Of a stretch of DNA of 36,290 nucleotides, positions 3,181 through 23,709 are shown one piece after another. Location: positions 1 through 36,290 of the forward strand of contig CAZVIU010000003.1 of assembly GCA_964626935.1 (NCBI GenBank), given 5' to 3'. This DNA is from an uncultured Gammaproteobacteria bacterium (lineage in GTDB: Bacteria; Patescibacteriota; Patescibacteriia; CAZVIU01). Numbering within the stretch: the first letter of the stretch is position 1; every line of letters begins with the position of its first letter. Position numbers and translations under genes: made by a program. Below the pieces are notes generated by a model. It searched no databases, was not told the DNA's origin, and saw nothing but the letters and a program-made list of their open reading frames with translations.

Positions 3181-3386
3181 GAGCCCGAAGCACCTTGGGC
3201 GCTTCTGGTTTTATTCTTGGGCCCGAAGCACCTTGGGCGCTTCGGGCCCGGCTATAGGCTTATCTTGTTTTGATCAGTTTATCGTGTTAATATCTTTGAG
3301 TCGGTTTGGTTATGAGCCCGAAGCGTCTTGGGCGTTTCGGATTTGGTTATATTTTCGGCCCGAAGCGCCCAAGGCGCTTCGGGCCC
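3181..3386. repeat. Four copies of palindromic REP-like element GCCCGAAGCRC-N4-6-GCGCTTCGGGC
   Basis: Copies lie at 3181-3208, 3219-3249, 3314-3340 and 3357-3386. Full copies read GGGCCCGAAGCACCTTGGGCGCTTCGGGCCC and are followed by a conserved RGCTAYNNGCT tail. Confidence 0.9.
3265..3293 (+). promoter_or_regulatory. Putative sigma70-type promoter for the first Wzy_C-TPR gene
   Basis: TTGTTT (3265-3270), a 17-nt spacer ending in TGT (extended -10), then TAATAT (3288-3293). This is a pattern match only. It would place REP copies 3 and 4 in the 5' UTR. Confidence 0.25.
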
Positions 3387-3392
3387 AGCTAT

Positions 3393-5744
3393 ATGCTAAA
3401 ATTTATTCGTAATCTTTTCTTATTTTCACCACTGATTTTTTTCGCTTACACGCCGTGGACTTTATATCCGGCGATCTTTGGCCGGACGATCATTTTTCAG
3501 ATCATTGTTGAAGTGATATTAGTTATAGTTATACTTGCTAATTTATTTGGGCGATCGTTAACCGGCGGAGAATTAGGAATTAAGCCCCGACGTAAAGCCC
3601 CGATATCTAAGATACAGGCTGCCGATCATAGTATCGGCACCCAAAGCGCTATTAGGAGCGCTTCGGGCTTTGTTTTGGGCCCGAAGCGCCTTGAGCGCTT
3701 CGGGCCCAGCTACTGGCTTCTCGGGATCCCAACCGAAGCGTCGGGAAATTATGAATTATGGGGACGAGCTAAGGAGATATTTTTTTCACCAATTGGGGCG
3801 AGCCTAATAATTTTTACTCTAGTTCAGTTTGTTTCTTATCTCTTTTCAGTTGATCAAGAGGCAAGCTTTTGGGGAAGTATGTCGCGAATGGATGGCATAT
3901 TTAGCTGGCTGCATATGGCAGCGCTTTTCTTTTTATTAGTTGCATTTTTGGATAAATCTGCCTGGTCCAAATTTTTAAAAATTAATGTTGTCATCGCTGG
4001 GGTCCTAAGTATTTTAGCCGTGATTCAGCATTTTTACGACCCTGTTCCTAAATATATAATTCAATCCGGTCGAGTTTATGCCACTTTTGGCAACCCAGTG
4101 TTTTTTGCCCTGTATTTATTGTTCACGATTTTTCTTACATTATATTTTTTATTGGGAGTTGAAACGAAACAAACATTGAGCCCGAAGCGCTATTATGAGC
4201 GCTTCGGGCTCAACAGACGACGCGTTGCGAAATATTTTTTTATCGGAATGCTCGCGATTTTACAAATAGTCGCGCTTTTTTGGACTGGGAGTCAGGGAGC
4301 AATTGGAGGATTTTTGGTTGGGATTTTGGTTCTTAGTTTAATAGGATTAATAAGGCAGTTCACTACCCCAGAGGTGGCGGCCACGCAAAGAATTAAGTTA
4401 GTGAGACTCATGGGAATTATAGGTATCGTCGGACTCATAAGTTTCATGGGTTTTTTCAAATTAGGTTTGGGGCAATTCGTTCGGTTACGCGAGCTTTCTT
4501 CAGTTGAAGGATTAGAAGCCCGAACAACTGTTTGGAAAATGGGTTTACAAGGATTTAAGGAACGGCCGATTTTGGGATTTGGCCCGTCAACTTTTGAATA
4601 CGTTTTTGATAAATATTATAATCCTGAACTTTTGCGGCACTCTTTTTACGAAACCGTTTCTAACAAGCCGCATAATATTTTTGTGGAAACGCTTGATCAT
4701 TTGGGGACTTTGGGATTTTTAAGTTATTTAGGTATATTTACCGCCGCCATCCTTGTTTTGCGAAAAATTAGAAAAATAGATTTTAAATTAGCTGTTATTG
4801 GTTTCGGACTTTTAGTCGCCTATCTTGGGGCCTTGCAATTTTCTTTTGATACAACTAATTCGTGGTATATGTTTGTGGTATTTTTGGCCTATATAACAGC
4901 AAGAGAACAAGAGAACAAGAGAACAAGAGAACAAGAGAACAGCGGGACTCTGTATCAGTCCGGTGGCCAGCCGATGGATACAAGACGGGCATCAAAACAT
5001 AAAAATAAACTTGTTTTCATGTTTTCATGTTTTAATGTTTTAGTGATAGCGGCGGCATTGTGGTTTGGCAACATTGAAGCTTGGGCGGCATCGGTACCCG
5101 GAGCCAGATCAAAAAATAAGTATTGGTTTCAAAAACCAATTAAGTGGGCCAATGAAGTTAGGAAAGCTATTGACGGGCCAAGTCCATATCATGATGAAAT
5201 TCGCGTAATTTTCGCGCAAGACTTGATCAAGTGGGAGGCGGGCGGCAATCTGCCAATGGTTGAGATTCAAGATCAAGTTAGTTTACTTAGGAGCAAGCTA
5301 GAAGAGAGCGCGAGTCAACACCCAAGTAATTTTCAATATCGTTTTACTTCGGCACAAATACAAGGCATTGAGGCAGAGAATTTTGACATGGCTAGATTAG
5401 GTGAAGCCATCAATTCCGCGCGTCAAGCGCGAGACTTATCACCGCGTCGTCAAGCGGCCTATTTAATTTTAGGCAAGCTTTTGCTTCAAAATGGAGATTT
5501 AAGAAGCGCCGAAGAGTTTGCGAATAAAGCGGTTGAGTTATATAAATTTGCCCCAGAATCGCACTGGTTTTTGGGCATAATCAAAAGCGCTGAAGAAAGA
5601 CTAGATGAAGCTGTTGCCGAATTCAGGCTGGCTCGTGAACTTGGCTACGATTTTAAGCCGCAAGAGATAATTTATTGGATGAGTATTAATAAAAAACGTG
5701 ATAGGGCGGAAGAGAATGATGAGCTAAGGTTGCTGCTTCAGTAA
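3393..5744 (+). CDS. O-antigen-ligase-family (Wzy_C) polytopic membrane protein with C-terminal TPR domain, paralog 1 (carries in-frame repeat insertions)
   Basis: The N-terminus MLKFIRNLFLFSPLIFFAYTPWTLYP aligns with paralogs 2-4. Shared motifs are SVDQEASFWGSMSRMDG, GNPVFFALYL, TGSQGA and ILGFGPSTFEYVFDKYYNPELLRHSFYETVSNKPHNIFVETL. The C-terminal TPR-like helices carry LSPRRQ and ESHWFLG. The ORF is open back to 3306 only because two REP copies are stop-free, so ATG 3393 is preferred. Confidence 0.8.
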   Translation: MLKFIRNLFLFSPLIFFAYTPWTLYPAIFGRTIIFQIIVEVILVIVILANLFGRSLTGGELGIKPRRKAPISKIQAADHSIGTQSAIRSASGFVLGPKRLERFGPSYWLLGIPTEASGNYELWGRAKEIFFSPIGASLIIFTLVQFVSYLFSVDQEASFWGSMSRMDGIFSWLHMAALFFLLVAFLDKSAWSKFLKINVVIAGVLSILAVIQHFYDPVPKYIIQSGRVYATFGNPVFFALYLLFTIFLTLYFLLGVETKQTLSPKRYYERFGLNRRRVAKYFFIGMLAILQIVALFWTGSQGAIGGFLVGILVLSLIGLIRQFTTPEVAATQRIKLVRLMGIIGIVGLISFMGFFKLGLGQFVRLRELSSVEGLEARTTVWKMGLQGFKERPILGFGPSTFEYVFDKYYNPELLRHSFYETVSNKPHNIFVETLDHLGTLGFLSYLGIFTAAILVLRKIRKIDFKLAVIGFGLLVAYLGALQFSFDTTNSWYMFVVFLAYITAREQENKRTREQENSGTLYQSGGQPMDTRRASKHKNKLVFMFSCFNVLVIAAALWFGNIEAWAASVPGARSKNKYWFQKPIKWANEVRKAIDGPSPYHDEIRVIFAQDLIKWEAGGNLPMVEIQDQVSLLRSKLEESASQHPSNFQYRFTSAQIQGIEAENFDMARLGEAINSARQARDLSPRRQAAYLILGKLLLQNGDLRSAEEFANKAVELYKFAPESHWFLGIIKSAEERLDEAVAEFRLARELGYDFKPQEIIYWMSINKKRDRAEENDELRLLLQ
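3644..3707. repeat. REP-like palindromes (one partial, one full copy) inside paralog-1 CDS
   Basis: 3644-3669 is AAGCGCTATTAGGAGCGCTTCGGGC (partial). 3677-3707 is GGGCCCGAAGCGCCTTGAGCGCTTCGGGCCC (full). They are translated in-frame as ..SAIRSASGFVLGPKRLERFGPSYW. Confidence 0.9.
4178..4211. repeat. REP-like palindrome inside paralog-1 CDS
   Basis: GAGCCCGAAGCGCTATTATGAGCGCTTCGGGCTC is read in-frame as LSPKRYYERFGL, in a loop that is shorter in paralogs 2-4. Confidence 0.9.
4901..4940 (+). repeat. Perfect octamer array (AAGAGAAC)x5 inside CDS
   Basis: This is a direct read of five exact units, translated REQENKRTREQEN. Confidence 0.95.
5013..5042 (+). repeat. Octamer array GTTTTCAT/GTTTTAAT x3.7 inside CDS
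   Basis: GTTTTCAT GTTTTCAT GTTTTAAT GTTTTA is translated FMFSCFNVL. The same array type occurs at 31392-31424 and, reverse-complemented, at 25549-25580. Confidence 0.9.
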
Positions 5745-5831: not shown

Positions 5832-8054
5832 ATGTCTTTAGAAAAAGTGTGTTTTAAAATTTTGCGTCTTGGTGTTTATGCGAGCCTGGTCGCGCCTTTT
5901 TTTGTATTTCCGTGGACAATTTATCCGTATCTTTATGCCAAGGCATTATACATTAATATTATTGTAGCTGTAATGCTGCCATTTTACGTAGTTTTATTAA
6001 CCACAAATCCGGATTTTCGACCTAAAAAAAATCCCCCAACTATTGCCGTAATAGCATTTTTTCTTATCTTAATAGTTTCTAGTATTTTTAGTCCTGATCC
6101 GGGGCGGGCTTTTTGGGGAACACAAGAAAGATCAGCCGGACTATTTTTTCTGGCGCATTACTTCTTATTATTTTTAATCGCCAGCTCTATTTTTCGTAAC
6201 GAGGAGAGCTGGAAGAAACTTTTAATATTTTCTCTTTTTATAAGCATACTTGTCGCTGGCGGAACTTGGTGGGATATTGCCATGGAAAAAATCTGGAAGC
6301 CCGGAGCAGGGACAAGAACTGGCGGCACCTTGTCTAACCCTATTTTTTATGCCGCCTATCTCTTATTTCACATCCCCCCATCCCTTTGGTTAAGTTTCTC
6401 GGGTCGTAAAAAGGCGCATAAAATTGCTTGGCTGGCCGTTTTTATTTTTCTTAGTATTTCTTTGTTTTATACGCTTACTCGTGGCGCCCTACTTGGTTAC
6501 TTTGGTATGTTTTTCTTTGGTTTAATTTTAACTGGCTTATGTGTACAGAGATACCGAAAATGGATGTTTTTAGCTTCTAGTTTGATAGTAGTTTTTTTTG
6601 CCTTGATTTTTTTATTACGAACCAACCCGGTAATTTTAAAAAATCCGATATTAGGACGCCTCGCTTCGATTTCGCCCAAAGAAATAACCGCCCTAACCCG
6701 GCTAGAAGCTTGGCAAATTGCTTGGTATGGCTTTAAAGAAAAACCGATTTTAGGCTGGGGGCCGGAAAATTATTACGCTATTTTTAATAAATTTTATAAT
6801 CCAAAACTCTTGCGTTTTTCATATTATGAAACCTGGTCTGATAAACCGCACAGCATTGTTTTTGAAATTTTATCAACAACTGGTTTTTTGGGTCTAGCGG
6901 CTTATCTTGCGATCTATGGGTTGATCCTTGCTCATGGTTTTAAAAAATTGCGTAAAAAAACCATATCGGCAAAATTAACCATTCCGCTTTTAATGATTTT
7001 TGTCGGGTTTTTTATACAAAATCTTTTTGGTATTGATACAGTGAGTACCTACCTGATGTTTTATATCTTATTGGCTTTTGCCGGGTTTATTTTATATCCT
7101 ACAAATACTATAAGTCCCGTGAGTTTTGTAAGATCCGTAAACCCGATAGGAAATGTAAAACGTCCGGTAATTCTTGCCGGTATTGCAACAAGCATTCTTT
7201 CTCTTGTTTCAATCTGGCAATGGAACATCAAACCTGCTTACGCAGGCCATCTTACAGCCAAAGCAACAACCGTGGAGAATTTTGGTGCGGCTACGGATCT
7301 TTGGCAAAAAGCGTTAGATATTAAACATCCGTGGGCTTACGATGCCCAAGTTGAATACTTAAAAGGCATCACGAGAATAGTTCAGCGATCAGCAAATACG
7401 CAGTTTGAAGACTTAAAACCACTTCTCTTGCGCGGCGAGATGGCGGCAGAAGACCTAACAGCCAGTCACAAGCAAAATGCCTATTTTAATTATTTAGCCG
7501 GTAGATTTTATAGTGAATGGGGCAAGTTTGAATTTAAATATTTTGTTGAAGCAGAAAAATTATTTAAAAAATCTATTGAATTGAGCCCGCGTCGTCAGCA
7601 GCTTTTTTATGGTTTGGGTAGAATGTATTTGCTTTCCGGAAGAACTGACCAATCCTTAAAAGTATTTGAAGATTTAGTTAAGCTTGATCCCGGGGTTGAT
7701 GAATCTCACTGGTTTTATGGTTTGGCCCTGCGTCAAGCTGATCGCGGAGTCCAAGCCTACGAAGAGATAAAAGAGGCCATTCGTTTAGGATACAATGCGG
7801 TTGATTCAGGAGAGGTATTAGTTTTAGCCGAAGTAGCCACAAAAGAAAATGACCTCAAGGCGCTTCAAAAAATTTATGAAAACGCGATTGCCATTGATCC
7901 TAAGAATGGTGATTGGCACGCCCGGTTGGCGGCGTTGTATTTAGAATTGGGAAGAAAGGATGAGGCGCGCAAATTAGTTATCAGGGCAGTAGAGTTGGAC
8001 CCGACGCTTAAAGAAGAAGCAACCAAATTTTTGAAATTATTAGAAATTCAGTAG
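5832..8054 (+). CDS. Wzy_C (O-antigen-ligase family) membrane protein with C-terminal TPR domain, paralog 2
   Basis: Motifs are SPDPGRAFWGTQERSAG, TRGALLG and ILGWGPENYYAIFNKFYNPKLLRFSYYETWSDKPHSIVFEIL, with about 10-12 hydrophobic helices. TPR motifs are ELSPRRQQLFYGLGRMYLLSGR and DPKNGDWHARLAALYLELGRKDEARKLVIRAVELDP. ATG 5832 is preferred over the track's TTG 5820. Confidence 0.85.
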   Translation: MSLEKVCFKILRLGVYASLVAPFFVFPWTIYPYLYAKALYINIIVAVMLPFYVVLLTTNPDFRPKKNPPTIAVIAFFLILIVSSIFSPDPGRAFWGTQERSAGLFFLAHYFLLFLIASSIFRNEESWKKLLIFSLFISILVAGGTWWDIAMEKIWKPGAGTRTGGTLSNPIFYAAYLLFHIPPSLWLSFSGRKKAHKIAWLAVFIFLSISLFYTLTRGALLGYFGMFFFGLILTGLCVQRYRKWMFLASSLIVVFFALIFLLRTNPVILKNPILGRLASISPKEITALTRLEAWQIAWYGFKEKPILGWGPENYYAIFNKFYNPKLLRFSYYETWSDKPHSIVFEILSTTGFLGLAAYLAIYGLILAHGFKKLRKKTISAKLTIPLLMIFVGFFIQNLFGIDTVSTYLMFYILLAFAGFILYPTNTISPVSFVRSVNPIGNVKRPVILAGIATSILSLVSIWQWNIKPAYAGHLTAKATTVENFGAATDLWQKALDIKHPWAYDAQVEYLKGITRIVQRSANTQFEDLKPLLLRGEMAAEDLTASHKQNAYFNYLAGRFYSEWGKFEFKYFVEAEKLFKKSIELSPRRQQLFYGLGRMYLLSGRTDQSLKVFEDLVKLDPGVDESHWFYGLALRQADRGVQAYEEIKEAIRLGYNAVDSGEVLVLAEVATKENDLKALQKIYENAIAIDPKNGDWHARLAALYLELGRKDEARKLVIRAVELDPTLKEEATKFLKLLEIQ

Positions 8055-8160
8055 AAATTAGTTAGAAATTAAATAGAAATTAAGTATAAATAAATAGAAA
8101 TTAGCTCGCTCACGCTCGCGAAATTAGGTTACAACCTAATTTCTACTTAATTTCTACTTC
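8041..8160. repeat. Composite spacer element: phased TAGAAATT direct repeats, central hairpin, inverted AATTTCTA repeats
   Basis: TAGAAATT lies at 8041, 8052, 8063, 8074 and 8095 (11-nt phase, with degenerate TATAAATA at 8085). The hairpin AAATTAGGTT-AC-AACCTAATTT is at 8121-8142. AATTTCTA lies at 8138 and 8149. The array overlaps the paralog-2 stop codon TAG at 8052-8054. Confidence 0.85.
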
Positions 8161-8186
8161 GTTTCGTGAAGCTAATTTTTTTATTT

Positions 8187-10430: not shown

Positions 10431-10440
10431 AAACTTAATT

Positions 10441-10553
10441 GAAATTCGGTGGAAATTTGATAGAAATTATCCCCATCTAAATCCTCCCCCTGCGATACAG
10501 GGGGAGGAAGTAGGAGAGGGTTAATTTCAACTGAATTTCGCGCAGTGAATTTC
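10441..10553. repeat. Composite spacer element: phased GAAATT repeats, GC hairpin, inverted AATTTC repeats
   Basis: GAAATT lies at 10441, 10452 and 10463 (11-nt phase). The hairpin CCTCCCCCTG-CGATA-CAGGGGGAGG is at 10483-10507. AATTTC lies at 10523, 10534 and 10548. The architecture matches 8041-8160. Confidence 0.85.
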
Positions 10554-10569
10554 TATTGAATCTCCGACA

Positions 10570-12856: not shown

Positions 12857-14014
12857 TTAATATTTGTATAGCTTAACCGTTTTTATAAGCATTTTGTCAA
12901 AGTTGAATTTTTCTTGGAATTGCCTCGCGGTAGCGTGGCTTAAATTGTTGCGTAACTCTTGATTATCAATAAATTTTTTAAGAGCATTTACAATTGCCCT
13001 TGAATCAGCTGGCGGCACTAAAAGGCCGCTTGTTTCATTTTCTAACATTTCTGGTATGGCGCCCACATTTGTCGCTATAATTGGCACACCGGCTTGTATA
13101 GCTTCAAGCAAGGCATAAGGCAGACCCTCTTTTACCGAAGGGAGCACAAAGAGGTCAAAGGCCTTTAGATAGCGAGCTGCATCAGGCAGGGAGCCGATAA
13201 GATAAAAATTTTGCAATCCATAATTCTTAATTCTTAATTCTAAATTCTCGCGTTCTGGGCCAGAACCGATAATGATGAAACTTGGTTCGACCCCTTCTTT
13301 CTTAAGTACGGCTGCTGCATCAATGAGATATTCAATACCCTTGGTTTTATAAAGATTGGCGATGGTGATAATCCACAGCGGGGAATTAAGAATTGAGAAT
13401 TTAGAATTAAGCTTTGCACGCGCCTCATCGCGTGAAAGAAAACTAATTGGATTGATGCCGTGGGGGATTATGGCAAGTTTTTCCTGATCGCAGATTTTAT
13501 TTTTTAGCGCGGCGGCATAATCATATTGAGAGAGCGTAATTATTCTATCGTGAATTTTGCCAGCAACGCGCTCCATAAATACATATAGTTTTTTGCGCCA
13601 CCAAGGCAGAGGTTCGTTAAAAACCCAGCCGTGGGCAGTGTAAATTAATTTAGGTTTTAGGTTGTAGGTTGTAGGTTGTAGGAATTTTTTAGCCACTGTG
13701 CTGATGAGGCTGGCTTTGGAGCTATTTAGATGGACGATGCTGGGCTGCTCCTTTTTAAAAAATTGTGCTAGCTCAAAAATTGCCGCGATATCTTTAAGCG
13801 GATTAATTTCACGGACGAGATTTTTAAAAGTATGCGTATTAATATCCGCTTCTTTGCATTTTTGTATCAATTCCTGACTACCCTCCGCGCCAGATGCAAC
13901 AGTAATATCAAACTCATCTTTTAAGGCAGTTGCCAAATCAAAAACATAGGCTTGCGCGCCACCCCATTCGCCTTGAGTTACCACATAAATTAGCTTTAAT
14001 TTTGCTGGTTGCAT
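12857..14014 (-). CDS. GT4-family (GT-B) glycosyltransferase
   Basis: The N-terminus is KLIYVVTQGEWGGAQAYVFDLA. The C-terminal donor-binding motif is FVLPSVKEGLPYALLEAIQAGVPIIATNVGAIPEMLENETSGLLVPP (EX7E). Confidence 0.9.
   Translation of the reverse strand: MQPAKLKLIYVVTQGEWGGAQAYVFDLATALKDEFDITVASGAEGSQELIQKCKEADINTHTFKNLVREINPLKDIAAIFELAQFFKKEQPSIVHLNSSKASLISTVAKKFLQPTTYNLKPKLIYTAHGWVFNEPLPWWRKKLYVFMERVAGKIHDRIITLSQYDYAAALKNKICDQEKLAIIPHGINPISFLSRDEARAKLNSKFSILNSPLWIITIANLYKTKGIEYLIDAAAVLKKEGVEPSFIIIGSGPERENLELRIKNYGLQNFYLIGSLPDAARYLKAFDLFVLPSVKEGLPYALLEAIQAGVPIIATNVGAIPEMLENETSGLLVPPADSRAIVNALKKFIDNQELRNNLSHATARQFQEKFNFDKMLIKTVKLYKY
13221..13248. repeat. Heptamer array TAATTCT x4 inside GT4 CDS
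   Basis: TAATTCT TAATTCT TAATTCT AAATTCT is read on the minus strand as ENLELRIKNY. Confidence 0.9.
13383..13411. repeat. Heptamer array GAATTAA x4, inverted partner of 13221-13248, inside the same CDS
   Basis: GAATTAA GAATTGA GAATTTA GAATTAA G is read on the minus strand as KLNSKFSILNS. It lies 134 nt from the inverted array. Confidence 0.9.
13651..13682. repeat. Heptamer array TAGGTTK x4.6 inside GT4 CDS
   Basis: TAGGTTT TAGGTTG TAGGTTG TAGGTTG TAGG is read on the minus strand as QPTTYNLKPK. Confidence 0.9.
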
Positions 14015-14076
14015 ATAAGCATTGATCTTGATATTATAGTGTGATATAGTGGTTTATTCAAGTATCTGATTATTGA

Positions 14077-14140
14077 GCGTTTAGCGCATAGCGGTTAGCG
14101 TTTAGTTAATTGTTCTAAACCCTAAACCCTAAACCCTAGG
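14077..14140. repeat. Two heptamer arrays in divergent intergenic region
   Basis: GCGTTTA GCGCATA GCGGTTA GCGTTTA lies at 14077-14104. CTAAACC CTAAACC CTAAACC CTAGG lies at 14115-14140 and ends at the TTG start at 14141. Confidence 0.85.
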
Positions 14141-15139: not shown

Positions 15140-15220
15140 TAATTAAGTCATTGGTCACTAAGTCATTGAGACAATTTTAAATGACTGTTAATTACTTAAT
15201 TACTTAATTACTTAATGACT
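15140..15220. repeat. Inverted octamer arrays spanning the spacer between SDR and GT4 genes
   Basis: The left arm is TAATTAAGTCATT..CTAAGTCATT. The right arm is AAATGACT GTTAATTA CTTAATTA CTTAATTA CTTAATGA. CTTAATTA is the reverse complement of TAATTAAG. The element begins right after the stop codon at 15137-15139, and ATG 15215 lies in its last unit. Confidence 0.85.
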
Positions 15221-16495
15221 CGAGTTGTAATCTTCAGCACCTTCTACGAGCCCTTTATGTCTGGGGCCGAACGAATGGTTAAAGAAGTAGTAGAGCGGTT
15301 GCAAGAGCGCTATTCGTTTATAATTGTTACTTCTCGTTTAAGACGCAATTTGCCCCAGTTTGTTGAGGTCGAACATCGACGCACTTTGCAGCGAGCAGGA
15401 GCGAGCGAAAGAAGGAGGTTCGACCTCGATGACAGTCGAATTAAAATTGTGCGGATCGGTTTTGGTTGGAAATTTGATAAATTTTTGTATCCAATTCTCG
15501 CGCCGTTTTACGCATTAAGATATAGGCCGAAGATTGTTCACGCGATAATGGAGAGCTACGCGGGAATCGCGCTTTTAGTTTATTCGTATCTCGCCAAACT
15601 TTCAAAACCCTTAATTCTTAATTCTCAATTCTTAATTCTAACCTTACGGCGGAGATCGAATCTCGACGCACTCTGCAGCGAGCAGGAGCGAGCGAAAGAA
15701 GGAGATTCGATCTCGCATAAAAATGTATTCACCATTCTAACACTCCAGAGCGGTGACCTTGACCTACCAGAAAAACAGGCGCGGATTCCTAGGTGGCTTT
15801 GGAAGCGAATACATTGTGCGCCCAATCTCATAGTTTCTATTGGAAATTCAATGGCCGAGCGTGCAAGAAAGTTGGGAGCAAAGAGTGTTCGAGTTATTCC
15901 CAACGGTGTTAATCTTACGGAGGTCCGACCTCCAAATATACGGAGGTCGGACCTCCGTCAACATCATATTGTATGTGTTGCCCGTCTTTCTCCTGAAAAG
16001 GGAATTGAATATCTAATCGAAGCAATGCCCTTCGTAATAGCGCAATACCCTGATGCCGAGCTGGTTTTGGTGGGAAATGGCGCATTGAGAGAAAAGCTAC
16101 AAGCTACAAGCTACAAGCTACAAGCTCATGTTGAGTTTAGAGGCACGTTATCTCATGAGAAAACTCTTGAAGAAATGGCCACCTCTGATATTCTCGTTTT
16201 GCCATCTTTAGCCGAGGGCATGGGCATTGTGTTAGTCGAAGCTCAAGCGCTCGGCGTTCCAGTAATCGGTACTAATGTTGGCGGTATTCCAGATGTTATT
16301 GAGCACGAAAGAACAGGCCTGCTCGTGCCGCCACATGACCCGCGCGCAATCGCGCAAGCAGTCATTCGCTTATTTCATGATCACGAACTAAGAGAACGCA
16401 TGGTTGTTGAAGCGGAAACGCGTCTTCTTAAATTTGATTGGCAGAAGATCGCGGAAGAATATAGGAACATTTATGATCAGGTATCAAGCGTATAA
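15215..16495 (+). CDS. GT4-family glycosyltransferase carrying five in-frame repeat insertions
   Basis: The C-terminal motif is ILVLPSLAEGMGIVLVEAQALGVPVIGTNVGGIPDVIEHERTGLLVPP, and ARLSPEKGIEYLIEA is present. The N-domain is interrupted by repeat-encoded segments (see repeats at 15365, 15611, 15652, 15917 and 16094). Confidence 0.85.
   Translation: MTRVVIFSTFYEPFMSGAERMVKEVVERLQERYSFIIVTSRLRRNLPQFVEVEHRRTLQRAGASERRRFDLDDSRIKIVRIGFGWKFDKFLYPILAPFYALRYRPKIVHAIMESYAGIALLVYSYLAKLSKPLILNSQFLILTLRRRSNLDALCSEQERAKEGDSISHKNVFTILTLQSGDLDLPEKQARIPRWLWKRIHCAPNLIVSIGNSMAERARKLGAKSVRVIPNGVNLTEVRPPNIRRSDLRQHHIVCVARLSPEKGIEYLIEAMPFVIAQYPDAELVLVGNGALREKLQATSYKLQAHVEFRGTLSHEKTLEEMATSDILVLPSLAEGMGIVLVEAQALGVPVIGTNVGGIPDVIEHERTGLLVPPHDPRAIAQAVIRLFHDHELRERMVVEAETRLLKFDWQKIAEEYRNIYDQVSSV
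15365..15427 (+). repeat. 63-nt hairpin element, copy 1 (GAGGTCGAAC-N43-GTTCGACCTC)
   Basis: It has a 10-bp perfect stem and is translated EVEHRRTLQRAGASERRRFDL, with element position 1 at codon position 1. Confidence 0.9.
15611..15640 (+). repeat. Heptamer array TTAATTC x4.3 inside CDS
   Basis: TTAATTC TTAATTC TCAATTC TTAATTC TA is translated LILNSQFLIL. Confidence 0.9.
15652..15714 (+). repeat. 63-nt hairpin element, copy 2 (GAGATCGAAT-N43-ATTCGATCTC)
   Basis: The core CGACGCACTYTGCAGCGAGCAGGAGCGAGCGAAAGAAGGAG matches copy 1, which differs at one position within it (the Y). It is read in a different frame, as RRSNLDALCSEQERAKEGDSIS. Confidence 0.9.
15917..15957 (+). repeat. Two adjacent copies of palindrome ACGGAGGTCSGACCTCC inside CDS
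   Basis: Copies lie at 15917-15933 and 15940-15957 and are translated TEVRPPNIRRSDLR. The arms resemble the stem of the 63-nt element. Confidence 0.9.
16094..16127 (+). repeat. Heptamer array (AAGCTAC)x4 perfect plus a partial unit, inside CDS
   Basis: This is a direct read, translated KLQATSYKLQA. Confidence 0.95.
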
Positions 16496-16562
16496 TGTCA
16501 TCGCGAGGCAGAAGGCCGTGGCGATCTTTATAAAGATTGTAACGCTTTTGCTCGCAATGACA
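16496..16562. repeat. Intergenic inverted repeat TGTCATCGCGAG / CTCGCAATGACA with internal palindrome
   Basis: The stem is 12 bp with one mismatch. The loop contains the perfect palindrome ATCTTTATAAAGAT (16524-16537). It starts 1 nt after the stop codon at 16493-16495, so it is a possible terminator or processing structure. Confidence 0.7.
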
Positions 16563-16572
16563 TGACTGACGA

Positions 16573-17880
16573 ATGAAGATTTTAATAGCAACAGGAATTT
16601 ATGGAGGTTTGGGAGATATAGGTGGCCCGGCAATATATTCAGAGTCTCTTGCGCGAGAGTTGATTAAGCGCGGGCACAAAGTGACCGTTGTTACTTATTC
16701 TAGTTCATATAAATCCGAAATCCGAAATCCTCCGCCAAAGGCGGATCAGTCTCTGACTGAGAAATCCGAAACAAATCCGAAATCAGAAATTCAAAACTCT
16801 AATTTTTTATTAGTACGAGTTCAACGCGAATTACCACTGCTATTGCGGTATAGTTTTTATAAATTGACAGCACTCTGGCACGGATGGCACGCAGATATCA
16901 TATACGCTCAAGATTCAGTTTCTGCAGGATTTCCTACAATGTTGGCTAATCTAATTTTGCGAAAACCATTTATTTTGAAAGTTATTGGCGATTATGCGTG
17001 GGAGCAGTATCAAAATCAAAAATCAAAAATCAAAAATCAAAAATTAGGTATGTTGCCAAGCAGTATTGATCATAATGGTTTGTCGCTAGACGATTTTTTA
17101 AATGAAAAACCCAGTGGCAAGATTAAGGCTTTTTGGAATATTGAAAGATGGGTGGCAAGACGCGCCAACAAGATTATTGTGCCGAGCAATTATCTAAGAG
17201 GCGTGGTGCAGAAGTGGGGGATTCAATCAGCCAAGATTGAGGTGATTTATAATTCTTTTGACTGGAGCTCATTACAAAACTCGATCTCTAAAGTTCCGGT
17301 CGAGACCCCAGAGGCCACACCGCATGATACTATCTATTCAGTCGGTCGTCTTGTTCCGTGGAAAGGATTTGATACGTTGATTGAAATAATGCCCGAGGCA
17401 TTGAAAGAAAAACCAAATACAGAGCTCGTGATCTACGGCGATGGACCGATGCGTGAAGGTTTAAGATTTAAGATTAAAGATTTAGGATTAGAGACTCATG
17501 TGAAACTTTTGGGAAGAATAGATCACGCGAAGCTCTTGGAAGCCTTGCAGGGTGAGCGCAAGTTTTTTGTGCTTAACAGTTCGTACGAAGGTATGTCTCA
17601 TCAAATTTTAGAGTGTCAGGCTTTGAAAATTCCTTGCGCGGTTAGCCGCGTCGGCGGAAATCCGGAAATTGTGGAGAACGAAAAAACTGGTTTGCTTTTT
17701 GAATATAATAATAAAGAACAGATCAAAAACGCAATCATACGACTGCTTGACGAGCAAGCACTCGTCGAACATATAAGAGAAAAAGCCTATGCACAGATTA
17801 AAGATCGGCACGATTTTAATCAAATGATTGAAAAAACGATAACCGTACTCCAATCCACACTATCATACTATATAGTATGA
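16573..17880 (+). CDS. GT4-family glycosyltransferase carrying in-frame repeat insertions
   Basis: The N-terminus is KILIATGIYGGLGDIGGPAIYSESLARELIKRGHKVTVVT. GRLVPWKGFDTLIE is present. The C-terminal motif is FVLNSSYEGMSHQILECQALKIPCAVSRVGGNPEIVENEKTGLLFE. Confidence 0.88.
   Translation: MKILIATGIYGGLGDIGGPAIYSESLARELIKRGHKVTVVTYSSSYKSEIRNPPPKADQSLTEKSETNPKSEIQNSNFLLVRVQRELPLLLRYSFYKLTALWHGWHADIIYAQDSVSAGFPTMLANLILRKPFILKVIGDYAWEQYQNQKSKIKNQKLGMLPSSIDHNGLSLDDFLNEKPSGKIKAFWNIERWVARRANKIIVPSNYLRGVVQKWGIQSAKIEVIYNSFDWSSLQNSISKVPVETPEATPHDTIYSVGRLVPWKGFDTLIEIMPEALKEKPNTELVIYGDGPMREGLRFKIKDLGLETHVKLLGRIDHAKLLEALQGERKFFVLNSSYEGMSHQILECQALKIPCAVSRVGGNPEIVENEKTGLLFEYNNKEQIKNAIIRLLDEQALVEHIREKAYAQIKDRHDFNQMIEKTITVLQSTLSYYIV
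16711..16800 (+). repeat. 90-nt composite module: AAATCCG array, two hairpins, AAATCNG array; exactly 30 codons
   Basis: AAATCCG AAATCCG AAATCCT is followed by TCCGCC-AAA-GGCGGA, then TCAGTC-TCT-GACTGA, then AAATCCG..AAATCCG AAATCAG AAATTCA AAACTCT. It is translated KSEIRNPPPKADQSLTEKSETNPKSEIQNS. Confidence 0.9.
17011..17044 (+). repeat. Heptamer array (CAAAAAT)x4 perfect, preceded by CAAAAT, inside CDS
   Basis: This is a direct read, translated QNQKSKIKNQK. Confidence 0.95.
17460..17494 (+). repeat. Degenerate heptamer array TTTAAGA x5 inside CDS
   Basis: TTTAAGA TTTAAGA TTAAAGA TTTAGGA TTAGAGA is translated LRFKIKDLGLE. Confidence 0.8.
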
Positions 17881-17887
17881 TAGTGTG
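17856..17887. repeat. Perfect 32-nt palindrome spanning the stop codon of the GT4 gene
   Basis: CACACTATCATACTAT|ATAGTATGATAGTGTG. The TGA stop at 17878-17880 lies in the right arm. It encodes the C-terminal tail STLSYYIV and is a candidate terminator hairpin. Confidence 0.9.
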
Positions 17888-17926
17888 AGGTTCAGTTAGA
17901 TTGTCGCTGTTTCTACGGTGATAACT

Positions 17927-19153
17927 ATGCGGGTTTTAATAATAAGTCTTGATCAATCAATCCTAGATCCGGCGTCAGAAGCGCGAAGCAGGATGTTGGA
18001 ATATGCGGCGCTCGCAGATGGTTTATATGTTTTTGTATTTGCGAAACGCGGATCTACACGCGGATCTTCTCGCGCGGATCTACACGCGGATCAGAATTTA
18101 TTTATATATAGATTCAGTGCAAGCACTGTCGGTTGGATTAAGGCGTTATTTTTCGGTAGACGACTCGTGCGCGAAAAACAAATTGATGTAGTAAGTTCGC
18201 AGGATCCCTTTGAAACCGGCCTACTCGGATATCTAATTGTTAAATTGATGCACTTTCATACTATAAAGTATGAAAGTGCCAGTACAGTAGGTTTGAATGT
18301 GCAGTTGCACGGGGACTTTTATGGAAATCCATATTGGCGAATTGAACAATTATTGAATCGGTTGCGGTGGCATCTTGGATTATTTGTTATGCGTCGCGCT
18401 GGCAGCATTCGTGTTGTTAGCGAAAGAATAAAACAAAGCTTAGAAGCAAGAATTAAGAATCAAGAATTAAGGATTATCAAGGCTCCTATTTATACGGACA
18501 TAGAATTTTTTCGTACTGCCAAACCGATTTTCAACTTGAAAGAAAAGTATCCACAATTCAATTTTATAATTATCACCGTTGCTAATCTTGTGCCTGTTAA
18601 AAACTTAGAATTTCTTATTAACGCGATGAAAAAGCTGCATGAAATTTTAACCAATGCCGGATTGGTGATCGTCGGTGATGGTCCACTCCACAAAAAGCTA
18701 AAAGCTAAAAGCTACAAGCTACAAGCTAACAATTACATTATTTTTGAGGGTACGCAAAAAGGTTTAGTTTCATATTATAAAGGTGCTGATTGCTTGGCGC
18801 TTGTTTCCAAGTACGAGGGTTGGGGCAGGGTAGTGGTGGAGGCCGTCGCTAGCGGTTTGCCCATTGTGATGAGTGATGTTGGGTTAGCGGGAGAATTGAT
18901 TAGGGACGAAGAGAGCGGTCTTGTTGTGCTGAAGCGAAACTTCGACCAATGGAAGTTTCGCTTCGATCAGAACGCCGAAGATGACCTAGTTCGCGCGCTT
19001 TCACAAGTCTATTTTAACGAAAATTTAAGAAAAAAATTGATTGCTGGCGCGACAAATGCCTTGCAGCAGTTACCCTTAAAACAAGAAACACTAGAGTTGA
19101 TTAAAAAGTCGTGGGAGCTTGCAACGCGTAAAAGCAACGGTATTCACGATTAA
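17927..19153 (+). CDS. GT4-family glycosyltransferase carrying five in-frame repeat insertions
   Basis: MRVLIISLDQSILDPASEARSRMLEYA is the N-terminus. The C-terminal motif is LALVSKYEGWGRVVVEAVASGLPIVMSDVGLAGELIRDEESGLVV. ATG 17927 is preferred over GTG 17918. Confidence 0.85.
   Translation: MRVLIISLDQSILDPASEARSRMLEYAALADGLYVFVFAKRGSTRGSSRADLHADQNLFIYRFSASTVGWIKALFFGRRLVREKQIDVVSSQDPFETGLLGYLIVKLMHFHTIKYESASTVGLNVQLHGDFYGNPYWRIEQLLNRLRWHLGLFVMRRAGSIRVVSERIKQSLEARIKNQELRIIKAPIYTDIEFFRTAKPIFNLKEKYPQFNFIIITVANLVPVKNLEFLINAMKKLHEILTNAGLVIVGDGPLHKKLKAKSYKLQANNYIIFEGTQKGLVSYYKGADCLALVSKYEGWGRVVVEAVASGLPIVMSDVGLAGELIRDEESGLVVLKRNFDQWKFRFDQNAEDDLVRALSQVYFNENLRKKLIAGATNALQQLPLKQETLELIKKSWELATRKSNGIHD
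18047..18092 (+). repeat. Four copies of CGCGGATCT spaced 12/14/12 nt inside CDS
   Basis: CGCGGATCTACA CGCGGATCTTCTCG CGCGGATCTACA CGCGGATC is translated RGSTRGSSRADLHAD. The first two copies are read as R-G-S and the last two as A-D-L. Confidence 0.9.
18250..18279 (+). repeat. Hairpin GCACTTTCATACT-ATAA-AGTATGAAAGTGC inside CDS
   Basis: It has a perfect 13-bp stem and is translated MHFHTIKYESA. It shares the TCATACTAT..AGTATGA core with the palindrome at 17856-17887. Confidence 0.9.
18448..18475 (+). repeat. Heptamer array AAGAATT x4 inside CDS (same family as 13383 and 15611)
   Basis: AAGAATT AAGAATC AAGAATT AAGGATT is translated RIKNQELRI. Confidence 0.9.
18695..18729 (+). repeat. Heptamer array AAGCTAM x5 inside CDS
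   Basis: AAGCTAA AAGCTAA AAGCTAC AAGCTAC AAGCTAA is translated KLKAKSYKLQAN. The family and protein position match 16094-16127. Confidence 0.95.
18931..18964 (+). repeat. Hairpin GAAGCGAAACTTC-N8-GAAGTTTCGCTTC inside CDS
   Basis: It has a perfect 13-bp stem and is translated KRNFDQWKFRF. It shares the GAAGCG/CGCTTC core with the REP-like family at 3181-4211. Confidence 0.9.
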
Positions 19154-19164
19154 CGCGTTAAAAT

Positions 19165-19199
19165 AAAAAAGCTCGGGAACCCCGAGCTATGTATTTTTT
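19165..19199. terminator. Bidirectional rho-independent terminator between convergent genes
   Basis: An A6 tract precedes the hairpin AGCTCGGG-AAC-CCCGAGCT (19170-19188). ATGTA and a T6 tract follow. Confidence 0.8.
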
Positions 19200-19278
19200 A
19201 ACGTACTGCGGCATCAGGTGTAAATGATTATATGGCCTTTTCTAAAATCTATATAACTGCTTCGTTAAGGTAATCTTT

Positions 19279-20427
19279 TTAAGATGTCGTTCTGCCTGCG
19301 GCAATTTGTGCGTTGCTATAGCCTTCCTCATCGGTTACATCTTTCTGTGCCCTGATAAATGGAGGCACAATGAACTCCGTGTTCTCTTCAGTCAATTCAA
19401 TTTCCAAAATAGTTAGATCTGCGGGGACAATAAATTCGTCAAGATGAAAATATTGACTTCGGTAAGCAAATGAGTGTCGGCGTTTTTTAATCGTTACAAG
19501 ACGTGTATCACGATCTTCAAGGAGCGCGGCGTACTCGCGGCTAGAAATAATACGTTCGGTTTTGTACCAGGTTCCCGGGCCAATTTTCTTTTTTTCTGTG
19601 TATGTATAGAGAGTGCTTTTTGAGTCTACGCCGTACATTCTTGCTCGTACGCGGCGTTCAGCGCCAGAGTCTCCGGAATTTAGATATGTTTGTTCAATGG
19701 TGATCGTTGTTCTAGGCGTTGCTACGTCGTGCATGTCGAGTGTAACAAGAAAACGGCGAGCAATTTGGAGTGGCGCCGGAATATCGAGCGCGTGACATAC
19801 TTCAGCAACAAGTCGTTCCATTTTTTCATCAAAAGTTATTTTTTCCTCAACACCGATGATAATTTTTGTGTTACCGATAATGCGCAGATGTGGGTGTCCC
19901 ATCCAGGCGGAAAGCGTTGCGGTATCGCGTGCCATGGCGGCTTCAAGCGTTTTTTCGTATCGGGCTGGATTATCAAGATTGTAAAATTCTGGAGCGCCGT
20001 CTGCCGCAGTTACAAGGTGAATGACTGCAGTATAGCGTTCATCGCCAATAGTGCGCGGATCATATCCAAGTCCAGAAACAATGTTATCAAATACTGCCGC
20101 ATCAATATACGCTCTTCCATCCCTGAATCCACGATCACATACAAGGGCTTTCTTGCTCCCTGGTTGAATGCAGGCAAATCGTTTCCAGGCGTCCTCAATG
20201 CCGAGTTGAGTTCGCGCAATTTCTTTTTGAAATGCCGCATTCAAGGCGTGGTCCCCGACAATATCTTGAATATGCACACCACTTGTTAAAACGAGTGTAG
20301 CAACTTCTGGTACAAGAAATGGGGTTATACCAAATTCAGGTAGTTTTTGCATGAGAATAGAAAGTCCAGTGGATTTGCCAGCGCATGGCCCACCAGTTAA
20401 AACAATCCTAGGGATATGGTCGGTCAT
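19279..20427 (-). CDS. P-loop NTPase (AAA_28/NadR-kinase-like) fused to a C-terminal CYTH (triphosphate-tunnel) domain
   Basis: Walker A is VLTGGPCAGKST and Walker B-like is ALVCDRG. The C-terminal half carries CYTH-type strands: QIARRFLV (at the EXEXK position, degenerate), IEQTYL, RRVRAR, IKKRRHSFAY, YFHLDEF and ILEIEL. A canonical SD (AAGGAG) lies 9 nt upstream of the ATG. Confidence 0.7.
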   Translation of the reverse strand: MTDHIPRIVLTGGPCAGKSTGLSILMQKLPEFGITPFLVPEVATLVLTSGVHIQDIVGDHALNAAFQKEIARTQLGIEDAWKRFACIQPGSKKALVCDRGFRDGRAYIDAAVFDNIVSGLGYDPRTIGDERYTAVIHLVTAADGAPEFYNLDNPARYEKTLEAAMARDTATLSAWMGHPHLRIIGNTKIIIGVEEKITFDEKMERLVAEVCHALDIPAPLQIARRFLVTLDMHDVATPRTTITIEQTYLNSGDSGAERRVRARMYGVDSKSTLYTYTEKKKIGPGTWYKTERIISSREYAALLEDRDTRLVTIKKRRHSFAYRSQYFHLDEFIVPADLTILEIELTEENTEFIVPPFIRAQKDVTDEEGYSNAQIAAGRTTS

Positions 20428-20628
20428 CTTGGGCGTCTCCTTTTTAGTTGTTAAGGTCCGTCATCCTGTCCCTACTATGGCACTACACACATTCAAAAGT
20501 CAATAGTGACTGATTGAGGCTAAGCGCCAATCATCTGTCTATGATGGCTTACGAAGCTCGTTCTAGTTGCATAAATTATAAATAAACATTAAGATTATTT
20601 CAGGTCATTGAAATAAGGGAGGCGCACA

Positions 20629-21789: not shown

Positions 21790-21810
21790 ACGCGCCCTAC
21801 AGCGCGTTTT
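21788..21810 (+). terminator. Rho-independent terminator
   Basis: AAACGCGC-CCTACA-GCGCGTTT is followed by T, overlapping the stop codon at 21787-21789. Confidence 0.75.
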
Positions 21811-22055
21811 ATATAATTCGCACACCACATAGGTGCGTACACATTGTGCGGCTCGATACATAAACGCATACATAAACTGATTAAATTATCGGACTGTATT
21901 ACTATAGAACCAATTGTTTTTTTACTCTTTGTAAGTCTATAGAGGGGTAAGGAGAAACGACACCTACATAAATCACGCATAATTCGTGATGCAGACGCGA
22001 TATGTGTATAAAAATAGTCTGAATTCATTAATAAAAGACAGAAAAGAAGGACCCA

Positions 22056-22460
22056 GTGTTAGTATTGATACCGGACGTAGTGTGTGAATCAGAGCGGAAA
22101 CCCGATCACGAGGACGCGCGTAGGACGCTGTGCACTATGTTTAATGGTGATCTTGGAGAATTCCGCGCGGCACAAGTCAAGTGTGTGTTTATAAAAGCGG
22201 ACGGTGTTTTAGGTGGACACTTTCATAGATATCACGAACTTTTTTATCTGCTCGATGGCGAAGCCTCATTTGTTCTACAGCATACATGTAGTCTTCTTAA
22301 GCAGCAGCTTGTATTGAGAAAAGGATCGCGAGTACTTATTCCTCCTTTTGTTGCGCATGCTGCGAAAGTCAAGGCTGGAACCATTTTGGTTGGTTGTACT
22401 GAAGTACCGTATCGATCGGCCGTAGAGAATGATCAACCATACGAAGTGAAGTTTGATTAG
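22056..22460 (+). CDS. Cupin-fold protein (WbuC/CapF-C-terminal-like, sugar-nucleotide associated)
   Basis: GGHFHRYHELFYLLDGEASFVL and LIPPFVAHA are cupin motifs 1 and 2. The start is GTG 22056, and an internal ATG is possible. Confidence 0.55.
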   Translation: MLVLIPDVVCESERKPDHEDARRTLCTMFNGDLGEFRAAQVKCVFIKADGVLGGHFHRYHELFYLLDGEASFVLQHTCSLLKQQLVLRKGSRVLIPPFVAHAAKVKAGTILVGCTEVPYRSAVENDQPYEVKFD

Positions 22461-22465
22461 TTACT

Positions 22466-22490
22466 AAAGCAACCGCCAGGGTTGCTTTTT
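22466..22490 (+). terminator. Rho-independent terminator
   Basis: AGCAACC-GCCAG-GGTTGCT is followed by a T5 tract. Confidence 0.8.
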
Positions 22491-22538
22491 AATTTATTTT
22501 AAGATAATATCAAGCCTATAACAGTCTCTATTTTGTAA

Positions 22539-23582: not shown

Positions 23583-23588
23583 TTTATT

Positions 23589-23707: not shown

Positions 23708-23709
23708 TT

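Follow-up and report, generated by a model that had tools for sequence, protein, structure and literature searches.

The window analysed here, a stretch of 36,290 nucleotides (nt) of contig CAZVIU010000003.1 (assembly GCA_964626935.1), encodes four paralogous proteins that combine a Wzy_C domain with a TPR region. The gene of the first of them, paralog 1, contains in its open reading frame (ORF) a composite repeat element of 142 nt (4901-5042, hereafter site 1), in which an A-rich octamer array (A-arm) is followed by a spacer and a U-rich octamer array (U-arm). A related element (site 2) is located between the genes encoding a GT2 glycosyltransferase and RmlD. The first-pass annotation had described site 1 as five A-rich units, a spacer of 72 nt and a mixed U-rich array, a description which both the sequence and Tandem Repeats Finder (TRF) reproduce.

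3393-5744, + strand: paralog 1, 783 amino acids (aa) from the ATG at 3393, Wzy_C domain, linker, transmembrane (TM) helix and TPR region (Pfam, alignment, AlphaFold2 model)
4901-4940, + strand: A-arm of site 1, a perfect (AAGAGAAC)x5 array (TRF 4900-4941, 5.2 copies, 100% match)
4941-5012, + strand: spacer of 72 nt encoding SGTLYQSGGQPMDTRRASKHKNK, open only in the frame in use
5013-5042, + strand: U-arm of site 1, GTTTTCAT GTTTTCAT GTTTTAAT GTTTTA (TRF 3.8 copies, 95%)
5019-5021, + strand: in-frame ATG within the U-arm, opening a TM-TPR ORF of 241 aa, candidate restart codon

The octamer element within paralog 1

The A-arm is free of stop codons in all frames and encodes AREQENKRTREQEN (residues 503-517). 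The spacer, which shows no similarity to any other sequence compared, contains a small predicted GC hairpin at 4945-4961, and the two unused frames run into stops 59 and 100 nt past the A-arm. The peptide of the U-arm, LVFMFSCFNVL, constitutes the N-terminal half of the last TM helix; the second unit of the arm is the C variant and gives TTT TCA, where GTTTTAAT would give an in-frame TTT TAA. Directly behind the U-arm lies an in-frame GTG (5043), whose position corresponds by homology to that of the RmlD start at site 2 (flanks GTGATAG and ATGAAAG, respectively), and both this codon and the ATG at 5019 may serve as restart codons if the A-arm slips.

Based on the Pfam search paralog 1 contains a Wzy_C domain (E=3e-16) as well as TPR, and the AlphaFold2 (AF2) model reaches a mean predicted local distance difference test score (pLDDT) of 83 and a predicted template modelling score (pTM) of 0.85. 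An identical protein is encoded on a JGI contig (L001). Gene callers place the start at the ATG at 3312 (810 aa), likely 27 codons too far upstream and within a group of palindromes similar to repetitive extragenic palindromic (REP) sequences; the true start is probably the ATG at 3393 (MLKFIRN), where paralogs 2-4 also begin in the alignment.

According to an alignment of 49 members the family shares one plan, in which a last Wzy helix (..FVFD..SY.LF..LAYI) is followed by a hydrophilic linker, a TM helix, the motif N..P..AN and the TPR region. The linker comprises 42 residues in paralog 1 versus approximately 18-28 across the family; it is approximately 15-20 aa longer than in the 48 relatives, which is roughly the size of the A-arm. 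The A-arm peptide forms the start of the linker and makes up most of this extra length, so that on the alignment the A-arm looks like a net addition, by which a linker of variable length has gained approximately 14 residues, all charged or polar. In the AF2 model its residues form the tail of the helix 488-519, along which the pLDDT drops from 93 to 78, and the spacer-encoded loop (residues 521-540) has a pLDDT of 52-69. The final hydrophobic window (Kyte-Doolittle 2.33) comprises residues 540-558 (LVFMFSCFNVLVIAAALWF), which correspond to the TM helix in the alignment with the 48 members and fall within the helix 534-575 of the model. Hydropathy, alignment and model are thus in agreement with the first-pass annotation, which had stated that paralog 1 has no stop at the element and that its predicted last TM helix is encoded in its first part by the U-array.

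Per unit, AAGAGAAC and GTTTTCAT can form six Watson-Crick pairs and one G-U pair with a single mismatch. Site 1 folds with -42.1 kcal/mol (z=-4.6), and in energy the duplexes of A-arm and U-arm were better than 500/500 U-arm shuffles. A consensus terminator scan returned no site at 4901-5042: the arms are AU-rich, and behind the small GC hairpin (4945-4961) the sequence continues with GGTGGCC rather than a U-tract. The site 2 stem, which is outside the scanned range and was judged from its fold, is nearly devoid of G-C pairs. No Rfam family matched at gathering score anywhere in the window, and at E<=1 only chance-level matches to miRNA families and IsrR were obtained around sites 1 and 2. A programmed -1 frameshift within the spacer (CAT AAA AAT AAA) was considered and rejected, as the slippery heptamer is out of the required register.

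Related elements at gene junctions and in other genomes

The pattern GTTTTMAT x3 was found six times in the window versus 0.01 matches expected and the pattern AAGARMAC x3 six times versus 0.00 expected, corresponding to three GTTTTMAT arrays and three A-arm-type arrays; neither type is due to chance. Those outside site 1, together with two further junction hairpins, are located as follows.

31346-31429, + strand: site 2, junction hairpin between GT2 and RmlD (fold -27.2 kcal/mol, z=-5.7)
25549-25579, - strand: site 3, third GTTTTMAT array, reading AAAACATGAAAACATTAAAACATGAAAATAA on the + strand, overlooked by the first-pass annotation
23006-23036, + strand: A-arm-type array (AAGAACAC)x3.9, in frame in GT4e (IRTQEHKNTRT), length-polymorphic
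8033-8165 and 10431-10569: hairpins between paralogs 2 and 3 and between paralogs 3 and 4, with arms of 11-nt period (GAAATTAnnnn / TAATTTCTACT)

The site 1 U-arm and its flanks share 92% identity over 39 nt with 31390-31428 at site 2 and are 89% complementary over 35 nt to 25548-25582 at site 3; the array at 23006-23036 shares 83% identity over 41 nt with the site 2 A-arm. Site 3 spans both the stop codon of asnB (25555-25557) and the ATG of a methyltransferase gene (25554).

Site 2 consists of AGAACACAAGAACAAAAGAGCATAAAAAC, approximately 12 nt and GTTTTAAT GTTTTCAT GTTTTAAT GTTTTAAT G. Its A-arm (31355-31385) holds the last seven GT2 codons and the stop (31377-31379), and its U-arm (31391-31424; TRF 4.2 copies, 92%) ends in the ATG at 31422; in the predicted fold the 5' arm is formed by the terminal 11 codons of GT2 together with its stop, and the 3' arm includes the RmlD start. 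The first-pass annotation had assigned the same pair of array types to this stop/start junction (31355-31424), which is correct; the U-rich array is clean and the A-rich array degenerate (TRF 73% matches, score 34). It had also noted that the peptides EQENKRT and EHKNKRA and the peptides FMFSCFNVL and MFSCFNVLM resemble each other at the two sites; they do, because like DNA is read in a like frame. The RmlD start is the last ATG of the U-arm, at 31422, because the orthologs begin with MKVLILG, MRIFILG or MTVALLG. RmlD has probably been called eight codons too long (31398-31421), and MFSCFNVL lies upstream of the true start and outside the protein.

The GT2 orthologs end in ...KKLL* or ...RRIV*, versus an additional seven-residue tail (EHKNKRA) in the GT2 of the window, and in a relative (L119) the GT2 and RmlD genes overlap by ATGA and carry no element. 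Judged by these orthologs, site 2 is a junction element that has been inserted, and its hairpin, whose 5' arm holds the upstream stop and whose 3' arm holds the downstream start, most likely couples the translation of the two genes.

Several other gaps of the window are organised alike: between stop and start two complementary array arms enclose a loop, and each gap has its own unit of 7, 8 or 11 nt. Array-armed hairpins between stop and start were found at the junctions of paralogs 2 and 3 (fold z -3.3), of paralogs 3 and 4 (z -7.4, with a central GC hairpin), of an epimerase gene and GT4b (z -3.05) and of GT2 and RmlD. Between GT4a and the epimerase gene the arms are complementary arrays, though the fold is not significant (z -0.9); two more gaps have strong hairpins (z -5.45 and -5.3) without periodic arms. 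In the GT4a/epimerase gap (AGCGTTT)x4.3 at 14076-14105 pairs with (CTAAACC)x3.4 at 14115-14138, immediately 5' of the epimerase start. The latter corresponds to (CCCTAAA)n, the plant-type telomere repeat, a likeness which is probably coincidental. An 11-mer array similar to those of the paralog junctions occurs on contig L128 (426-466), which also bears a REP-like palindrome.

In a scan for GTTTTMAT x3 with one genome per species, at least 116 stretches were obtained; all array counts given in the following refer to the matches listed. About one third of the stretches derive from metagenome-assembled genomes (MAGs) of Patescibacteria. Among the Patescibacteria arrays a strongly complementary arm was located within 100 nt upstream in 12/31 cases and downstream in 0/31 (2.3% under the null), versus an upstream arm in 6/86 arrays of other taxa. 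The polarity was constant on both strands, with the A-rich arm 5' and the U-rich arm 3'. The upstream arms of these composites are built of ATTAAAAC and ACNAGAAC units, followed by a short loop and the GTTTTMAT arm. Furthermore, the unit ACAAGAAC, for which the search pattern was not selective, adjoins five of the 34 Patescibacteria arrays, versus an expectation of 0.003 per window, and none of the 84 arrays of other taxa; it also builds the arrays at 23006 and 31355 of the stretch analysed here. The first-pass annotation had expected the array pair to recur at other gene junctions; it does so at GT2/RmlD and in the composites of Patescibacteria MAGs, and hairpins of the same plan with units of their own occupy further junctions of the window.

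No array out of 127 was contained in a same-strand open frame, versus 30% of random positions, and at most 12/127 were covered by any ORF of at least 100 aa. Composites were detected at 8-12 or more Patescibacteria loci and essentially never within ORFs; because of this, the position of site 1 inside a gene is exceptional. In co-directional gene pairs of Patescibacteria the U-arm adjoins the downstream start codon, as it does at site 2. A same-strand start adjoins just 14 of the 127 arrays, and the candidate of a sigma-70 promoter, with TGTTTTAAT as extended -10 region of a leaderless mRNA, was rejected on this ground and because TTTAAT lacks the A at hexamer position 2.

The U-rich array alone was also rejected as a conserved, specific motif across phyla, since permuted-unit controls were equally frequent in viral contigs. 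As the U-array alone is a generic type of microsatellite, the assignment to a family rests on the composite with ACNAGAAC-type arms; it is the composite, not the U-array alone, that is lineage-specific. In the Magnetococcales MAG DH2_bin6 (L016, L033, L038, L048, L095 and L105) a multi-copy element consists of an A-tract, the GC-rich stem-loop GGGGGTCTGGGGGATTCATCCCCCAGG and a GTTTTCAT/GTTTTAAT array, and is shaped like a canonical terminator with an octamer array as its U-tract.

For both RmlD and the Wzy_C-TPR family the best named matches are from Parcubacteria, Uhrbacteria, Kaiserbacteria and 'Patescibacteria group', and on these matches an assignment of the organism to the Patescibacteria is probable. 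PurA of contig L129, which carries the REP-like palindrome described below, shares at most 49% identity with any named organism, too little to inform the taxonomy.

Unit number, reading frame and rival explanations

Matches to the window were found on nine contigs from at least five datasets; those holding this organism are JGI 3300022563, 3300009691 and 3300017437, ENA ERZ27245644 and SRR5747841. Seven contigs are 100% identical to the window and one (L249, JGI) has a single substitution, G to T at 15074, the sole one in approximately 57 kb of cross-assembly comparison. The ninth (L250; ERZ27245644, k141_601269, 8,890 nt) corresponds to window positions 15187-24084 minus one AAGAACAC unit of the GT4e array, with 0 substitutions. 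This loss replaces the 342-aa GT4e by a truncated product of 176 aa and a separate ORF of 134 aa, and the short allele (2.9 units) is the consensus of the sample. From the sequence it looks like natural slipped-strand variation. The same contig begins exactly at a (TTAATTAC)x4 array (15188-15220), where heterogeneity in array length may have broken the assembly.

Changing the number of A-arm units of site 1 in silico retained the fused protein (775-791 aa) with 2, 5 or 8 units, and gave products of 533-552 aa without the TM-TPR part with 3, 4, 6 or 7. With 4 or 7 units the stop is located 59 nt past the array and 18 nt before the ATG at 5019; with 3 or 6 units it falls within the U-arm. Given stops so near to an in-frame ATG or GTG, off-register alleles would thus recreate a stop/start junction. 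The frame arithmetic behind the earlier statement that gain or loss of one unit would uncouple the Wzy_C and TPR domains is therefore correct, and the sister array in GT4e does differ by one unit between assemblies.

Repeats of non-triplet period are found in further genes of the window, beside palindromes of other types.

13221-13248, 13383-13411, 15610-15639, 16094-16126, 17012-17044, 17456-17494, 18442-18476, 18693-18737, 22738-22767: heptamer arrays in five GT4 genes
3640-3669, 3679-3705, 4180-4210, + strand: three GC-rich REP-like palindromes CCCGAAGCGC..GCGCTTCGGG, in frame in paralog 1

The window contains nine perfect arrays of at least three copies, all with periods of 7 or 8 nt and never a multiple of three, versus none at any period of 6 nt or more in shuffled sequence. 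Five GT4 genes contain 7- or 8-nt arrays of approximately 28-45 nt, and GT4a-d each have one at an equal structural position, in the helix after the GxG motif, with the domain length unchanged. Deviations from strict periodicity are concentrated at positions of potential in-frame stops: such stops within the arrays are removed by single substitutions in 8/8 cases, whereas out-of-frame stop triplets are kept in 15/21 (odds ratio 12, p=9e-6). Two near-identical 29-mers of GT4a (13383-13411) and GT4b (15610-15638; 97%, complementary on the + strand) are read differently, as LNSKFSILNS and LILNSQFLIL, and at different protein positions, so that array sequences appear to have been copied between sites. 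GT4b additionally contains two in-frame palindromic repeats of 64 nt in its N-terminal domain (15365-15428 and 15652-15715, 91% identical), which make up most of the approximately 58 residues by which it exceeds the Pfam model. The arrays cluster in glycosyltransferase and Wzy genes; arrays of at least three copies were absent from approximately 15 kb of the window and from the 7.9-kb contig L129, which encodes non-polysaccharide functions and has the REP-like palindrome in common with the window.

The three in-frame REP-like palindromes of paralog 1 encode peptides of the PKR..ERFG type (GTQSAIRSASGF, GPKRLERFGPS and SPKRYYERFGLN) and are located in insertions absent from paralogs 2-4; the region they encode (residues 55-119) has a pLDDT below 50 in the AF2 model. 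Four further copies precede the gene (3183-3384), and all seven copies of the window fall within 3183-4215. A scan of JGI metagenomes for this palindrome returned only four other contigs, all short.

We give an even chance to the explanation that site 1 is a junction-type repeat hairpin residing in frame and acts as a slippage-prone switch able to uncouple Wzy_C from the TM-TPR part. The 142-nt segment would then be a copy of the junction-type hairpin of this lineage, with A-rich octamers, a spacer bearing a GC hairpin and GTTTTMAT octamers. Its tolerance would follow from the fit of either arm to the protein segment that it encodes: A-rich octamers give K, R, E, Q, N and T in every frame and U-rich octamers F, L, V, M, S and C, and the sole in-frame TAA, which a GTTTTAAT unit would introduce, is avoided through the C variant. 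Due to its unit of 8 nt the perfect five-unit A-arm would be a hotspot of slipped-strand mutation. Unit counts other than 2, 5 and 8 would end the Wzy_C part beside or inside the U-arm, the ATG at 5019 could yield a separate TM-TPR protein, and the element would act as a contingency-type switch parting the two halves of a surface-polysaccharide enzyme. Site 1 itself may be variable, and the switch may be adaptive.

A wider claim, namely that Patescibacteria carry a portable, frame-independent junction module in which a one-unit change reversibly turns a multidomain gene into two coupled cistrons, appears improbable to us. Such a module would be a hairpin with octamer ladders as arms. Every frame of (GTTTTAAT)n and of its complement contains a stop, and every frame of (GTTTTAAT)n and of (ATGAAAAC)n also contains a start, in chains of overlapping TAATG/ATGA mini-ORFs; the C variant GTTTTCAT and the unit AAGAGAAC, by contrast, have no stop in any frame. 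If it were true, it would provide a heritable fusion/fission switch between a Wzy-type polymerase/ligase and its TM-TPR partner domain.

Several observations weigh against the switch at site 1 and against its derivation from a specific element. In viral contigs the GTTTTMAT octamer array had 43 matches versus 44 and 28 for permuted units. With the periodicity of both arms retained, pairing with the A-arm places the actual U-unit no higher than 6th among 42 units, and an equal period together with the A/U composition therefore explains much of the hairpin signal of site 1. The U-arm furthermore overlies the TM helix conserved in all 48 relatives without net gain; it is not a net insertion, and the capture of the whole 142 nt in one piece is therefore not demonstrated. 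Accordingly, the earlier suggestion of an intergenic-type element captured in a linker stands as far as a junction-type element occupies an intact ORF of 783 aa with a lengthened linker, but not for the U-arm. Alleles with 4 or 6 units were not found at site 1 in the two covering assemblies, which are 100% identical and may share a sample, so that the unit-number variation expected by the first-pass annotation is seen at the sister array of GT4e and not at site 1. Likewise, no truncated near-identical product of paralog 1 was found among 5.8 billion proteins. One length change in approximately 60 array-by-assembly comparisons indicates that switching is not very fast or that the samples are near-clonal, and the change itself is possibly an assembler artefact, though this is unlikely given an array of 31 nt and k=141.

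The element may also be a passive passenger, a neutral by-product of a lineage-specific repeat-forming process whose peptides happen to fit a loop and a TM helix and whose slippage produces null alleles that are purged; we regard this as possible, though rather unlikely. The palindromes in low-confidence loops of paralog 1 and the two palindromes of 64 nt in GT4b are the picture expected of selfish or neutral elements, all assemblies over sites 1 and 2 are identical, the copy numbers are low (3-5 units) and U-rich octamer arrays are generic. On the other hand, a neutral process does not readily explain why perfect arrays have only periods of 7 and 8 and never of 6, 9 or 12, why they cluster in glycosyltransferase and Wzy genes, or why the sole difference in 8.9 kb is the loss of a unit that switches off a glycosyltransferase in a sample consensus. 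Less probable, and in our view unlikely, is the assumption of two unrelated local microsatellites that expanded in place, with the likeness to the GT2/RmlD junction as convergence driven by A-rich codons of the linker and U-rich codons of the TM helix, and without any composite element. It would be in line with the modest rank of the pairing under the periodic null, with a U-arm that replaces a TM segment rather than adding one, with the heptamer arrays of GT4a-d in a conserved helix of unchanged length, and with AAGAGAAC differing at 2/8 positions from the AAGAACAC and ACAAGAAC units of other A-arms (63-66% identity). This is opposed by the close identity of the site 1 U-arm to site 2, flanks included, and its near-identity to site 3, by three copies of the C/A-mixed array in 36 kb versus 0.01 expected, by an order and spacing of the arms that agree with the composite family, and by the shared 29-mers of GT4a and GT4b, which show copying between sites in different frames.

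A function at the RNA level inside the ORF, such as attenuation, mRNA processing or an internal start giving unequal or separate Wzy_C and TM-TPR parts without slippage, is quite improbable. The predicted stability of -42 kcal/mol and the in-frame ATG within the U-arm would suit it, as would the U-arms adjoining downstream starts at site 2 and in co-directional Patescibacteria gene pairs and the GTTTTCAT arrays behind a canonical GC-rich terminator stem in the Magnetococcales MAG. However, site 1 was free of canonical terminators in the simple scan, its AU-rich stem encloses an interior of 72 nt and would be held open by translating ribosomes, no Shine-Dalgarno-like sequence precedes the ATG at 5019 and no Rfam family was matched. 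The first-pass annotation had alternatively proposed that the element marks a fusion or fission point between a Wzy_C gene and a TPR gene, and had suggested looking for relatives in which split genes are joined by the same element. As a scar of this kind, paralog 1 would go back to two cistrons with a junction element that were joined on loss of the stop. The complete junction anatomy and the stops of the other frames close to an in-frame ATG or GTG fit such a scar. One natural split was indeed found at exactly this linker, in contigs L125/L126 (4001-6061), where a Wzy_C protein of 474 aa is followed after 3 nt by a protein of 210 aa with an N-terminal TM helix and the TPR-like motif AEKxFxKSxELxPxRxQ, related to paralog 2 (BLASTP E=3e-7; hhalign 75%). 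The two genes are separated by a simple TAAaaaATG junction, free of arrays, so that the split state is viable but not tied to the element. The fused architecture is shared by all four paralogs and approximately 75 homologs of 21-30% identity, many of them from Patescibacteria; it is therefore ancestral, and the element does not mark the fusion of Wzy_C and TPR. A scar would furthermore need fission followed by re-fusion, where a single in-frame capture or expansion suffices, and we consider it highly improbable.

Comparison with known systems and further repeats

Slipped-strand phase variation is well described for lipooligosaccharide (LOS), lipopolysaccharide (LPS) and capsule glycosyltransferase genes of Haemophilus, Neisseria and Campylobacter (PMC11868660, PMC3315296). 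The window has in common with these simple sequence repeat (SSR) contingency loci that tracts are located in surface-polysaccharide ORFs, in several genes per locus and with units that are not a multiple of three, and that a glycosyltransferase shows a one-unit frameshift between samples (GT4e). The (AAGAGAAC)x5 array of paralog 1 is such a non-triplet tract within an ORF, and tract length alters the product in silico at site 1 and in the GT4e of L250. In contrast to the classic loci, which have units of 1-5 nt in many copies, the units here are 7-8 nt long in 3-5 copies; the arrays moreover form complementary pairs and also fill intergenic junctions, and the predicted OFF state of site 1 removes a domain and not the whole protein.

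Rickettsia palindromic elements (RPE) are said to have been described by Ogata et al. in 2000 as selfish repeats lying in frame in protein-coding genes. Shared with RPE are a dispersed hairpin repeat that occurs both between genes and in frame in intact ORFs and peptides placed in loops or surface segments, and the in-frame GC-rich REP-like palindromes of paralog 1 add to the likeness. The present family is likewise dispersed and multi-copy with hairpin potential (z -4.6 and -5.7), with copies at junctions (sites 2 and 3) and in frame (site 1 and 23006-23036). It differs in that its arms are tandem octamers, whereas RPE are non-periodic, 100-150 nt long and confined to one genus. Site 1 furthermore partly overlies a conserved TM helix, and neither a transposase nor a target duplication was identified in the window, Pfam searches included. 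In its mode of action the element thus resembles an SSR contingency locus and in its appearance an insertion of the RPE type; it differs from both in its low-copy octamer units, its paired complementary arrays, its location at junctions and an off-state that would split the domains.

Short tandemly repeated repetitive (STRR) heptamers are tandem repeats of heterocystous cyanobacteria. In the marine Beggiatoaceae TAACTGA direct repeats have been reported (PMC4679880). Both consist, like the arrays of the window, of dispersed sets of 2-6 tandem units of 7 nt with a proposed regulatory role, but have one or a few fixed units and are mainly intergenic, whereas in the window almost every array has its own unit, many lie in ORFs and they occur in pairs. 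Borg elements contain perfect young tandem repeats in genes and intergenic regions that are A-rich on the coding strand; they add new, poorly ordered protein segments, and all units within ORFs are divisible by three (PMC9879509). The arrays of the window are similarly pervasive in genes and intergenic regions, A-rich and associated with new disordered segments, but unlike Borg repeats have units of 7 or 8 nt, and are therefore read in all three frames, so that a one-unit change shifts the frame. Further general systems for comparison are hairpins that couple translation and intrinsic terminators of the bidirectional type. The hairpin of site 2 (-27 kcal/mol), in which stop and start occupy the 5' and the 3' arm, respectively, resembles the former, but the stems are AU-rich and made of tandem units, and a GC stem with U-tract is present neither at site 1 nor at site 2.

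Within the library searched, no paper contained both 'phase-variable' and 'Patescibacteria', and searches with the array sequences retrieved nothing relevant (one Francisella match was a primer for a variable-number tandem repeat, VNTR); searches on tandem repeats and hairpins of the candidate phyla radiation returned no description of the element. Slipped-strand switching has so far been studied almost only in host-adapted pathogens, and if our explanation is true, an uncultivated, probably Patescibacteria lineage varies its surface polysaccharides by slippage of 7- and 8-nt arrays. The predicted off-register states would cut the gene at a domain boundary beside an in-frame start, and the split version is natural in another lineage; site 1 therefore represents a concrete place for asking whether slippage toggles between a fused and a split enzyme. 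Hairpins with tandem-array arms at junctions and in coding sequence bear furthermore on the origin of protein segments and of gene boundaries. For annotation, array-encoded N-terminal extensions, as in RmlD and paralog 1, and pseudo-splits, as in the GT4e of ERZ27245644, are likely to be systematic errors in such MAGs.

Within the RmlD gene itself an imperfect octamer array of AAATATTT units (32122-32150) encodes EIFRYLNIEI. An array of this unit was also detected by TRF in the RmlD genes of L120 (7134-7164) and L119 (4847-4873), whose proteins share 58-64% identity, and its persistence across such a divergence is unusual for a DNA repeat.

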